NCBI GenBank assembly: GCA_965218095.1
Contig: OZ244587.1
Coordinates: forward strand, 3,584,001-3,648,000
Length of the DNA: 64,000 nucleotides
Direction of reading: 5' to 3'
From: Candidatus Poribacteria bacterium
Lineage (GTDB): Bacteria > Poribacteria > WGA-4E > PCPOR2b
A program made the translations under genes and the position numbers. The notes under the pieces were generated by a model, which saw only the letters and a program-made list of their open reading frames with translations, was not told the DNA's origin and made no database searches. How positions within the stretch are numbered: position 1 is the first letter of the stretch; the number at the start of each line of letters is the position of its first letter. Positions 17,302 to 20,124 of this stretch are shown piece by piece.

Positions 17302-18137
17302 CGAAAATCACTTTATTCCCTCGGATACGCAATTGCTGCAGATGGATATATCGCCACCTTGGGCTTCTGGTCACGATATATCTGCTTCAAGAAATCAAGA
17401 ATTTCATCCCACGATTCCATCAATTTGGCTCTGGGTTGAGCCTCTAAGACTTCCATCGGCCCGACAGCTTGAGAGAAGAGAATAGTGCGCCCATGCGTAT
17501 CAAGATGCGATGTCGGCTAGATTCCGACTCGGTGAACTTACCGCCGCATACCTAACTCTAACTGCGCTGCTGGAAACGGCAGGGTTGGAAGCAAGAGGAA
17601 AGGGCAAATGACTCAAAGGGAATGTAGACCCTTCAGGCTGTCATGTCAGGTAAGAGCAATATGACGAAAGCGAAAGTTGAACTGATAGTTGAAGCCTCGT
17701 AAACTCTGAACAGGTTAATCTACAAGTAGAAGGCTTGAGAGACCTTCCAATAATCAGCCTGTAGCTAATAAAGCGTGAGCCAAGATACTCTATTCTGCTA
17801 TTAGAGTATTGAAGGGCAATATATTTATTCTTTATATTGTCTTGTAAGTCGGAAGGCTTCGGGGTAAAGTCAGCGTCTAAGTTGCTCATGAAACGCACCT
17901 TGAGAGAGTGTGGGAGTCCCTAAACCGTCTGAAATGAGAGGTTTTCAGACGGCAAGGGAGAGGAGACTGTATAAGGTCTCAAATAGAGGGTGCATATCCT
18001 TCTTTTAATCTGGCAGACCGAATAACCCCATTATTCAACTTGCCACAAGAAAGGAGGTGCAAATTCCATCTCACCGAAAGGAGGAAGTGCCATGCAATTT
18101 ATTTGCATGTTATCACCCGCAAAGGAGGTGAATGCTA

Positions 18138-18263
18138 ATGATAATCCCCTGGTCTGACTACCAGGAATATCTTGCCTATATCTGCTTTAAGCGCGCTATG
18201 GGTAGAAAGTTCGATACTTTCGAGGAATATCACGCTAAGAGACAGAAAGAGCAGATAAGATAG
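18138..18263 (+). CDS. 41-aa small protein inside intron domain IV
   Basis: Perfect AAAGGAGGTGA RBS then ATG: MIIPWSDYQEYLAYICFKRAMGRKFDTFEEYHAKRQKEQIR. Confidence 0.55.
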   Translation: MIIPWSDYQEYLAYICFKRAMGRKFDTFEEYHAKRQKEQIR

Positions 18264-18573
18264 CCTCTCATCTATATGCCATTTTACACTTGGCTCTATT
18301 TGGAAGTCAAGTGTAAAGTGGCATAGAGACTTAAGCACAGTCAGGTTTATCGCTAAGAAATCGACGTAAAATCCATTAAGGGTGTCTGGCGCAAATCGTG
18401 TTCAATCACGGCGTTCAGCCCCCAACGTTGGACAGCGAAGAAAGTAATAGTGGTTGCAAGTGATTAAAGATTCAGATGCAGTAAATTGGGGTGGCGTACG
18501 GTCAAGGCAACCTAAAGCCGACACACCATAACCTCCGATTGACTGACCATGAATCTATAAGTATTGGTTTTAG

Positions 18574-18777
18574 TCAAGGCTTGGTAAAACTTTTCATAAC
18601 CCAAAGTACCGAACCTGCAAGGATAAAGCCGATAAAAATGCCGAAGGAAACGATAACCAGAAAATCCCTTAATGGTTTTTCTGAATTTCCGGCAACAACA
18701 ATCCCTAAGAAGACAGTAATGAAGGCGAAAGTCACAAATACTGCCCTAAATACTCCTTCCTGAACGGGAGAGTTCAA
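18574..18777 (-). CDS. 67-aa two-TM membrane peptide inside intron domain IV
   Basis: Two long hydrophobic stretches; AAAGGA RBS before TTG start. Confidence 0.55.
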   Translation of the reverse strand: MNSPVQEGVFRAVFVTFAFITVFLGIVVAGNSEKPLRDFLVIVSFGIFIGFILAGSVLWVMKSFTKP

Positions 18778-20124
18778 GAAATCACATCCTTTTTGATCGT
18801 AGTACGATTATCTAGGGGGGAAGGTTTCACTTACAATCACTGATAAACTGGAAAGCCGTGTGCGGTGAAAGTCGCACGCACGGTTTGGAAGGGGGGAAAG
18901 ACTTGCGAAAGTCCTACCTATCCTTACTAATCCCAATCCGTTGATCTGACCAGCGGCTTCCTTTCCTCGTGTTCTCGGTTTTCCTCCTCGCGACGCTGCT
19001 TGGTGTGGATAATCCCGAACCGATGGTAGCACACGCCCTCATCCCCAGAAGAAATCAGGACGCGTGTCGCTTCGGGTTGGGAGTGCCGAAGTGGCCAGGT
19101 GCCGATGGCGCCGTAGCTGAGGTCATGATCACGAGGATAGCCAGTAGAAATGACAATATCCGCATCCGGCATCGGTTCAATCGCATAAGCATCTCTGGCG
19201 ATTTCAGACGCGGCACGATGGGCATCCACAACATCACCAACGGAAAGCTCAGTAATCTGCCGCCTGTCGTTGAGGGTGGTCAGCACGGTCGCATTCAACC
19301 CTAACATTCGGGCGGCCTCTTCGGAGTTGAGCCGGAATTCATTCTCGACATTCCCTACATTCCCGCCACCCTCTAATATACCGTGCGCGGCGCTGATGGT
19401 CGTAAAACTCGCCACGCCGGGGATGATAATCTTCCCACCGCCGCTGAAAGCTGCGGTGCCGTGCGGCCATGCCCCGCCGATACCAATTTTTAACTCACAA
19501 TCTACTACCCATTGGTTGACATGAACTGGAATCCCACGCAAGGTTTTCCCCAGACAGACAAATGAATCATCCAACTCGTTTTGTTTGACGCGAATACGAC
19601 GTACCGTGTCCTCGCCGAGCTTCTTCACGAGATCAGCATGTCGCATCTGTCTGTGGCAGCCGAAGCCCATGAAGATTAAGATGTTCTCTTCGGGGATACC
19701 TCCTTCCTGGAGTTCCTCTAAGATGAAGGAGATGACTTCCGAGGCGGGGATAGGACGGGTTAAGTCGTCGCAAATGATGACGGCGCTTTTTTTCCCCTGC
19801 GCCATCTCCGCGATTCGCGGCGAACCAATTGGCTGTTGAAACGCCTGTCGCATCTGATTTTCGGTCAACACCGGACGGTCTTCAAACGCGATGAGATTGA
19901 GCTCCCAATCATCGGGAAAAGTCAAATTAACTTCTTTGTCGCCATACTAGGCGGCTGTCAAAACTTGAACGGATTGCATTCGTATCTCCTATTTGGAATT
20001 AATAAATCTGTAAACGAAACTTCTCTCCTCCTTATATATTGCCTCTGTTGATGTTCCAACAATTCGCATTGCACCAGATTTGACAGTCAAAGGGATTTTC
20101 CGCTATGGCTTCCAGATCTAAAGG

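Follow-up and report, generated by a model that had tools for sequence, protein, structure and literature searches.

Domain IV of a group II intron forms a loop that stands out from the ribozyme core and in which foreign sequence is tolerated. The known forms given in the accessible part of a 2015 review are introns that code for an intron-encoded protein (IEP), introns in which the IEP is degenerate, introns that code for a LAGLIDADG protein and empty introns without an open reading frame (ORF); a bacterial intron with another conserved protein gene is not among the forms named in that part (PMC4424553). Here we describe an intron that appears to hold such a gene. It lies in a 64-kb stretch of the genome of a Candidatus Poribacteria bacterium (the window; C1:3584001-3648000 of genome G000, a single 6.35-Mb contig, C1, that is 93.9% complete), spans 1443 nt, has no IEP and is accompanied in the same genome by a second copy of 1407 nt, the sibling intron (C1:4514987-4516393). 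Coordinates without a prefix are those of the window. Inside domain IV stands a micro-ORF of 41 aa followed directly by a long stem-loop. We put at about an even chance the reading that this is an IEP-less, trans-mobilised group II intron with a passenger micro-gene and stem-loop in domain IV, a reading in which mobilisation in trans, passenger status and any antisense control are what we infer from the evidence below.

ORF-less introns are rare in bacteria and, according to the same part of the review, nearly always have related introns as neighbours, with an IEP that may serve them in trans (PMC4424553). The window intron resembles them in its full ribozyme scaffold (GTGCG, domains V-VI, hereafter D5-D6) without a reverse transcriptase and in the presence of related introns in the same genome. 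It differs in that its domain IV holds a conserved gene that is no IEP and in that 23 D5-D6 elements share a single, split IEP. With the introns bearing a LAGLIDADG ORF, placed by that part of the review in fungal mitochondria and Thiomargarita (PMC4424553), it shares an ORF other than a reverse transcriptase; however, the domain IV ORFs match no Pfam family, LAGLIDADG included, 41 aa are too small for an endonuclease and no role in mobility is indicated. Engineered targetrons carry cargo best in domain IV (DIV), and ORF-deleted introns move when the reverse transcriptase is supplied separately, as set out in the available part of PMC3898094. The likeness here is an ORF-deleted intron with foreign coding sequence in DIV and its enzyme encoded elsewhere, whereas the window intron is natural, its mobility is read only from its insertion into a conserved gene, and its 886-nt domain IV is near the size that the same part of that source says impairs mobility (PMC3898094). 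Our literature search found no such cargo-bearing intron, although the supplementary lists of PMC8919778 may hold ORF-less introns with other ORFs, and it found nothing on group II introns of Poribacteria.

The intron and its domains

The element and its parts are as follows.

17485-18927, plus strand: group II intron of 1443 nt without IEP (sibling alignment, RF00029, BLASTN)
17485-17964, plus strand: domains I-III (D1-D3), the 3' limit approximate and set at the conserved GGGAGAGGAG
17965-18850, plus strand: domain IV, about 886 nt (alignment with minimal introns)
18851-18927, plus strand: domains V-VI (RF00029, 69.8 bits against a 40-bit cut-off, model positions 1-77 of 77)

Pairwise alignment with the sibling puts the 5' end at GTGCG (17485) and the 3' end at CCTTAC (18927), matching the GUGYG...AY rule. 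The flanks of the two copies are unalignable and an identity of about 99% begins and stops exactly at the intron ends, which together define the element as a 1443-nt group II intron. RF00029 is the only Rfam family above cut-off across the window; the D1 model RF02012 scores 31.1 bits at 17528-17671, short of its 34-bit cut-off, and BLASTN relates the window intron to 12 other elements of the genome with D5-D6 and a GTGYG 5' end, at 70-76% identity in D1. The limits of the domains are a reading of the alignment with five minimal introns of the same genome (715-803 nt) and no full structural model. Homology in D1-D3 stops at GGGAGAGGAG (17964) and resumes at domain V (18851), which locates the small-gene region between D3 and D5 in domain IV, where an initial reading made from the sequence alone (the sequence-only reading) had placed it in an intron without a maturase. 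Domain IV of the minimal introns is estimated from their sequences at roughly 170-250 nt, and the RNA fold of 17960-18850 has z = -7.4 against shuffles.

The sequence-only reading had named alignment of domain IV to a decayed reverse transcriptase or HNH gene as what would refute it, and no such gene was found. Six-frame searches of the whole genome with RVT_1 and with GIIM leave domain IV unmatched, and BLASTN and TBLASTX of domain IV against the genome return the sibling only. TBLASTN was run with 21 queries, drawn from this genome (its split IEP and an HNH remnant in a different intron) and from open frames of at least 150 aa at six loci of related Poribacteria introns, several of them IEPs; the best E was 0.036, against 0.038 on a reversed-sequence control. 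The positive control was a 2072-nt intron of the genome, in which an HNH remnant is still recognised (E 1.7e-9). By these profile, nucleotide, translated and control searches a decayed IEP in domain IV is rejected, and as no reverse transcriptase, maturase or HNH domain was detected there, the intron is filed as an ORF-less derivative of a mobile group II intron. A nested intron (twintron) or composite relic finds no support: no second D1 or D5-D6 signal exists at 17965-18850 at E <= 10, and BLASTN gives no match between domain IV and the other introns of the genome.

The micro-ORF and its stem-loop

Three features make up the unit at the centre of domain IV.

18138-18263, plus strand: micro-ORF of 41 aa (conserved family, dN/dS 0.24, AlphaFold2 helices)
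18271-18329, plus strand: 25-bp hairpin, 8 nt past the micro-ORF stop (inverted-repeat search, folding)
18281-18310, minus strand: sigma70-like candidate promoter inside the hairpin, antisense to the micro-ORF (TTGACT-18-TAAAAT, 10/12)

The micro-ORF is 43 aa long from its first ATG (18132) and 41 aa from the ATG at 18138, which lies 9 nt after GGAGG and is the start chosen by gene callers (protein P0003); the sequence-only reading had picked out this ORF with its ribosome-binding site, and both are present. The ORF is kept in frame in the sibling (51 aa, 76% identity), where over 41 codons dS is 0.61, dN 0.15 and dN/dS 0.24, with 9.5 synonymous and 13.5 non-synonymous differences. Among 176 Poribacteria genomes a profile of the micro-ORF finds G000 (twice) and one related genome, G007. 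In metagenomes the protein has nine relatives in total. A profile search of 1.84 billion representative proteins gives five at E <= 0.001 (1.8e-23 to 2.1e-8), all of 35-46 aa, and a word-indexed search of 5.8 billion proteins gives eight of 35-46 aa among proteins of similar length and one of 103 aa (P0011) among longer ones. The core of the resulting 11-sequence alignment has no internal gaps and invariant Y, A, I, F, G and T, with identity to the window protein going down to 33%. From the same 11 rows AlphaFold2 predicts a two-helix hairpin (helices 5-20 and 28-40, mean pLDDT 88.6, pTM 0.60); the modelled helices look soluble, and the peptide is charged and amphipathic, not hydrophobic. Pfam, NCBIfam, PADLOC, PHROGs, PDB sequences and the ESM Atlas yield nothing usable for the micro-protein, and the best Foldseek match of its model in the PDB has E = 4.3.

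Judged by its sequence, the 41-aa ORF is a real gene of a new, rare micro-protein family, and one that is presumably translated. By the same kind of evidence the family also occurs in a longer form. The metagenome protein P0011 (103 aa) is extended at its N-terminus and ends in a tail of EI..L..EI heptad-like repeats.

That domain IV is instead a non-functional relic, its content decaying and the ORF kept by recency only, seems to us very improbable. A relic would suit the lack of an assignable function, the mostly orphan sequence of 18331-18850 and the more decayed look of the window copy compared with the sibling, with its degenerate closing repeat and non-cognate 5' exon (both described below). 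However, length, frame and the invariant residues are kept at 33-61% identity, and dS of 0.61 against dN of 0.15 is unlike recent debris.

The hairpin noted from the sequence as at least 21 bp directly after the ORF measures 25 bp. Its 25-nt arms (18271-18295 and 18305-18329) are 88% complementary with G-U counted as mismatch and enclose a 9-nt loop; the energy is -34.2 kcal/mol (z = -8.0), and none of 200 shuffles folds as well. G007 retains it as 15 bp at -19.0 kcal/mol (z = -5.1). In both genomes the hairpin is more stable on the plus strand because of G-U pairs (-34.2 vs -30.9 kcal/mol in the window, -19.0 vs -15.4 in G007). The core TACACTTGGC...GTCAAGTGTA has three sites in two of 29 family genomes, always directly after the micro-ORF, and by direct reading the two genomes have an identical 9-bp stem core, while two pairs outside it are changed on both sides. 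This pattern of sequence conservation makes the ORF and the hairpin one conserved unit. At the same position in the hairpin G007 has a promoter-like site, TTGACA-18-TATACT (11/12). Such sites, which are consensus matches only, number four in the region against 2.7 expected; the one in the hairpin would start an RNA antisense to the micro-ORF.

Scans of genome, metagenome and viral contig collections for the contexts of micro-ORF relatives recovered the G007 locus only. The unit there lies outside domain IV, 127 nt past an enolase-superfamily-like gene, and is followed directly by a group II intron of the same family that is without about its first 35 nt and has its D5-D6 some 2 kb downstream. 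Recurrence within group II scaffolds, raised in the sequence-only reading as a check, extends to domain IV of the sibling and not to G007. Between D3 and D5 of the G007 intron (L044:3620-5703) lie two minus-strand ORFs; the 207-aa one contains an internal repeat, the 120-aa one has a lipoprotein-like N-terminus, and no Pfam match above cut-off was obtained for either.

All three readable copies of the micro-ORF thus touch group II introns, in two different ways, and two readings follow. The unit may be an ordinary small gene with a hairpin that draws in introns, one of which came to enclose it in G000, or it may be functionally tied to introns. Taken furthest, the second makes micro-gene and intron a new two-part mobile system in which the gene acts on the intron or its retention, in the role of minimal maturase, cofactor or addiction module; this we hold to be unlikely.

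The remainder of domain IV

Around the unit, domain IV contains the following.

18050-18057, 18077-18084 and 18121-18128, plus strand: three AAAGGAGG motifs, each in or beside a small local hairpin
18092-18157, plus strand: 21-aa upstream ORF overlapping the start of the micro-ORF, its ATG within a 7-bp stem
18331-18515, plus strand: middle of domain IV, 75% identical to the sibling, no ORF kept
18516-18785, plus strand: variable segment, unalignable with the sibling (33.6% column identity)
18574-18777, minus strand: hydrophobic ORF of 67 aa with a TTG start, probably not a gene

The 67-aa ORF had been proposed, as a two-transmembrane peptide, to be a second gene of a cargo cassette. The ORF is there, and it is conserved neither in the sibling, which has unrelated sequence in its place, nor in the 176 genomes, where the best non-self E per genome is 0.0011 and five genomes including G000 reach E <= 0.01, about the chance level for a hydrophobic query. 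It has no credible relatives, PADLOC, NCBIfam and PHROGs being blank, and its ESM Atlas score of 0.87 falls under the 0.9 mark, a level that gives leads only. A TBLASTN match at C1:2552096-2552293 (E 2e-4 without composition correction, E 0.0035 with HMMER) was dismissed as hydrophobic noise. The region 18516-18800 is A-rich (35.8% A against 24.1% in the window), so that its antisense strand is T-rich, stop-poor and hydrophobic on translation. In 90 of 2000 dinucleotide shuffles of 18516-18800 (4.5%) a minus-strand ORF of at least 67 aa arises, which makes the observed ORF neither clearly chance nor clearly selected. Because it is not conserved it is judged probably no gene, and is probably a by-product of A-rich intron sequence.

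The middle segment, 18331-18515, has no BLASTN or TBLASTX match elsewhere in the genome beyond the sibling, and the whole of 18331-18850 (about 520 nt) is orphan sequence. Further stem-loops had been noticed near 18487-18530, and an inverted repeat is indeed found there (18464-18489 and 18535-18560, 73% complementary). Since the 67-aa ORF is unsupported, the cassette envisaged by the sequence-only reading is reduced to one conserved unit, the ORF with its hairpin. An 18-nt match between the variable segment of the sibling and a repeat of the genome was set aside as chance, as the flanks differ. That dispersed repeat, of at least 140 nt, has about 53 nearly identical copies on both strands, outside the window (for instance C1:8836-8853 and C1:27364-27381), and contains a hairpin ACTGAAACC...GGTTTTCAGT followed by a T run; it may be a mobile-element end or a small RNA gene.

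Type I toxin-antitoxin loci pair a convergent antisense RNA with a small hydrophobic toxin. The domain IV content could be a module of this kind, in which a toxic small ORF or the 67-aa peptide and an antisense RNA from the hairpin promoter stabilise the intron copy by addiction, and we rank this below the two-part system introduced above, as decidedly unlikely. The likeness is a compact element with a small ORF, a strong Shine-Dalgarno (SD) sequence, a very stable 3' stem-loop and a putative promoter for an overlapping antisense RNA, near consensus and at the same place of the hairpin in both genomes (10/12 and 11/12). By direct reading, the 3' side of domain IV in both G000 copies also has an SD-like sequence at which a convergent ORF starts; the ORF of the sibling is 38 aa long and follows a perfect SD. 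Set against this, the conserved peptide is charged and amphipathic and no membrane peptide, which argues against a classical type I toxin, and the antisense RNA is putative. The hydrophobic 67-aa ORF is unconserved, the 38-aa ORF of the sibling has no relative in the 176 genomes, the promoter scan finds four sites where 2.7 are expected, and PADLOC, Pfam, NCBIfam and PHROGs are blank.

The other claims made from the sequence for the 5' side of domain IV hold, namely three AAAGGAGG motifs near 18050, 18077 and 18121 and a 21-aa ORF at 18092 that overlaps the micro-ORF. The window contains four AAAGGAGG matches against 1.94 expected, a number reached by 10 of 100 shuffles; the non-random part is their clustering, three of the four lying within 79 nt. 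Seven nt separate the second motif from the 21-aa ORF downstream of it, and the third stands ahead of the micro-ORF. Identity to the sibling over the stretch is 96.5%, on a par with the ribozyme, and the fold of 18036-18140 is not significant (z = -1.2). The first 13 residues of the 21-aa ORF are identical in the sibling, the only hint of translation of this putative ORF. Two further roles for the motifs were considered and rejected. In the sibling the third AAAGGAGG forms a perfect 13-bp pairing with a sequence on the 3' side of domain IV (-23.5 kcal/mol, equalled by 0 of 500 shuffles); an SD/anti-SD pairing of this kind as a conserved closing stem of domain IV is confined to the sibling and absent from the minimum-free-energy folds. 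GGA hairpins titrating CsrA are unlikely since no CsrA gene was found in the genome (93.9% complete).

In Ll.LtrB the ribosome-binding site (RBS) region of DIV binds the IEP and ribosomes, and ribosome binding shields the intron from RNase E, as the accessible part of PMC3851717 describes. By analogy a docking role of the AAAGGAGG cluster is plausible. The cluster resembles DIVa of Ll.LtrB, as covered in that part of the source, in placing an SD and start codon at the 5' side of domain IV (PMC3851717), but it has three SD motifs instead of one and a micro-ORF instead of an IEP, and any IEP binding here would be putative. A stricter version, in which the SD cluster and a short ORF hold ribosomes that shield the IEP-less RNA from RNase E so that translation and not the peptide matters, comes lower again in our ranking, as improbable. 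It accommodates three perfect 8-nt SD motifs within 79 nt where the rest of the window holds one, their conservation at the level of the ribozyme and the Ll.LtrB precedent, and leaves unexplained both the conservation of peptide sequence and length (11 proteins, down to 33% identity, dN/dS 0.24) and the ORF with hairpin outside domain IV in G007. Ribosome docking by the SD cluster alone may be compatible with a passenger micro-gene.

Contigs from three sponge metatranscriptome runs of one study cover domain IV with nine pieces at depth 2-7, seven of them without a differing letter and two with one. They include 17867-18114, 17978-18149, 18085-18191, 18327-18549, 18348-18609, 18436-18602, 18623-18851 and 18631-18838, and are a weak hint of transcription. 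No exon-exon joint for the site of the window intron occurs in the RNA contigs. The stretch 18947-19100 is free of RNA contigs, an absence that carries no evidential weight. Joints with short sides (23-30 letters, 90% likeness) were read as other, smaller introns of the community and not as splicing of the window intron.

Insertion, related introns and mobility

The intron interrupts a LarA-like gene, whose parts flank it.

17313-17484, minus strand: 3' part of the LarA-like gene, 56 aa (C-terminus of intact frames elsewhere)
18928-19925, minus strand: 5' part of the interrupted LarA-like gene (Lar_N, Pfam PF09861, E 5.1e-45)

Removal of 17485-18927 in silico restores a single open LarA-like frame on the minus strand. 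Of the 28 other family genomes, 23 have the 56-aa piece as the C-terminal end of frames of 411-452 aa that run without interruption; the uninterrupted gene is often present in family genomes as two tandem paralogues. A loaded intron inside a conserved gene without other damage argues for a recent move of the intron together with its load. The intron is antisense to the LarA-like gene and so cannot splice out of its mRNA. The sibling lies between genes, at a distance of 35 nt from a 336-aa ORF (L002:2942-3952, minus strand) that looks transposase-like by eye.

The genome contains 23 D5-D6 matches above cut-off. The regions upstream of 14 of these match the first 300 nt of the window intron, 13 of them with a GTGYG 5' end, and these 13 introns, the window intron and its sibling included, differ in what stands between D3 and D5.

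Five introns, 715-803 nt: minimal, nothing extra between D3 and D5
Two introns, 1407 and 1443 nt: micro-ORF
Four introns, 1523-2009 nt: transposase ORFs of IS3 or IS4/5 type on the minus strand between D3 and D5
One intron, 2072 nt: HNH remnant and ORFs without assignment
One intron, 2452 nt: the only IEP, as assembled running through at least two frames

The transposase-bearing introns (C1:5526113-5528121, 5863431-5865187, 707444-709174 and 4389514-4391036) have ORFs of the IS3 family (rve, HTH_Tnp_1) or the IS4/5 family (DDE_Tnp_1, DUF4096); Pfam was run on three of the four, and the fourth has the same two ORFs with few substitutions. Evidently domain IV is a lodging place for foreign DNA in this genome. 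The insert of the window intron, set beside insertion sequences (IS) and miniature inverted-repeat transposable elements (MITE), has no transposase and exists in only two copies in the genome.

The sole group II IEP of the genome, at C1:598217-600671 (L083:680-2493), matches RVT_1 at C1:599120-599766, in two frames, and gives the only GIIM match, at C1:599818-600042. A free-standing reverse transcriptase of 507 aa (C1:1094736-1096259, L082:737-2260; RVT_1 50.8 bits) lies outside any intron.

The shortage of IEPs invites the proposal that the 41-aa protein itself is a micro-maturase or intron cofactor which binds intron RNA, for example the hairpin, and aids folding, splicing or mobility. Its position where the start of an IEP would be, behind the SD of domain IV, the contact of three of three readable genomic copies with group II introns and the ratio of 23 D5-D6 elements to one, split, IEP would all suit such a role. 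The ORF, however, occurs in two of the 23 D5-D6 elements only, and the five minimal introns persist without it. A 364-aa open frame of the IEP, which holds the GIIM match, is still present, and the HNH remnant of another intron is 68% identical to that frame. The G007 copy of the ORF is not inside an intron but next to one whose 5' end is missing, and neither Pfam, PDB sequences nor Foldseek reveals similarity of the micro-protein to maturases or RNA-binding folds. Of all the explanations weighed here we consider this the least probable.

In the reading that we favour, an intron mobilised in trans with a passenger, the unit would consist of an SD site, the 41-aa two-helix ORF and the long stem-loop with its back-facing sigma70-like promoter. 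Its transcript would be part of the intron RNA, with translation starting from the third AAAGGAGG; the stem-loop would stabilise the message or mark its 3' end, and an antisense RNA started within it may keep expression down. Copies of the unit would reach new sites whenever the reverse transcriptase/maturase of a related intron mobilises the intron in trans. The micro-protein would be dispensable for splicing, and our guess is a small regulator that binds nucleic acid or protein. The AAAGGAGG cluster may be a DIVa-like docking region for ribosomes or IEP from a former IEP-coding intron.

Several observations weigh against this model. As assembled, the sole IEP is split into frames of 244 aa and 364 aa with the stretch between them best in a third frame; this could be real decay or assembly indel errors, and it leaves an intact trans-acting enzyme putative. 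The RNA contigs are unstranded and of low depth (2-7), and RNA libraries can contain DNA. The dN/dS value is based on just 41 codons, and the genomic contexts that are readable and independent are two, G000 and G007, in both of which contact with introns could mean a functional tie and not passenger status. The 13-bp inverted repeat closing the sibling's insert has a degenerate counterpart in the window (-12.7 kcal/mol, equalled by 95 of 500 shuffles). The target site also fits poorly. The loop hexamer CUGCUA of exon-binding site 1 (EBS1; D1 hairpin loop 17792-17812) pairs at six of six positions with the 5' exon end of the sibling, TAGCAG, and in the same register pairs two further introns with their own exons, but in the register used by these three copies the 5' exon end of the window, AGAATA, is unpaired. 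The window copy may, on this evidence, be an ectopic insertion. By direct reading AGAATA matches UAUUCU instead, with a 4-nt shift that reaches into the D1 stem.

The last of these observations concerns the mosaic of identity between the two copies. The ribozyme is 99% identical between window and sibling (D1-D3 99.2%, 476/480; D5-D6 98.7%, 76/77), whereas domain IV is far more diverged, with 87% identity in the hairpin, 70% over the micro-ORF columns with the indel included and 65% on the 3' side of domain IV. A single recent copying is therefore inadequate, and gene conversion of the ribozyme or an exchange of domain IV is needed. No cargo-free intron of this lineage was found in our searches, the closest relatives being about 75% identical in D1 and unalignable in domain IV, and for this reason the edges of the insert are undefinable.

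If the micro-gene is expressed, the window intron would be a natural counterpart of a cargo-bearing targetron and would demonstrate a capacity of retromobile ribozymes to disseminate host or selfish genes. Its product belongs to what appears to be a new micro-protein family, currently of 11 sequences and without known relatives. With 23 intron elements dependent on at most one damaged IEP, the genome of this sponge symbiont is suited to the study of trans-mobilisation and of intron decay.

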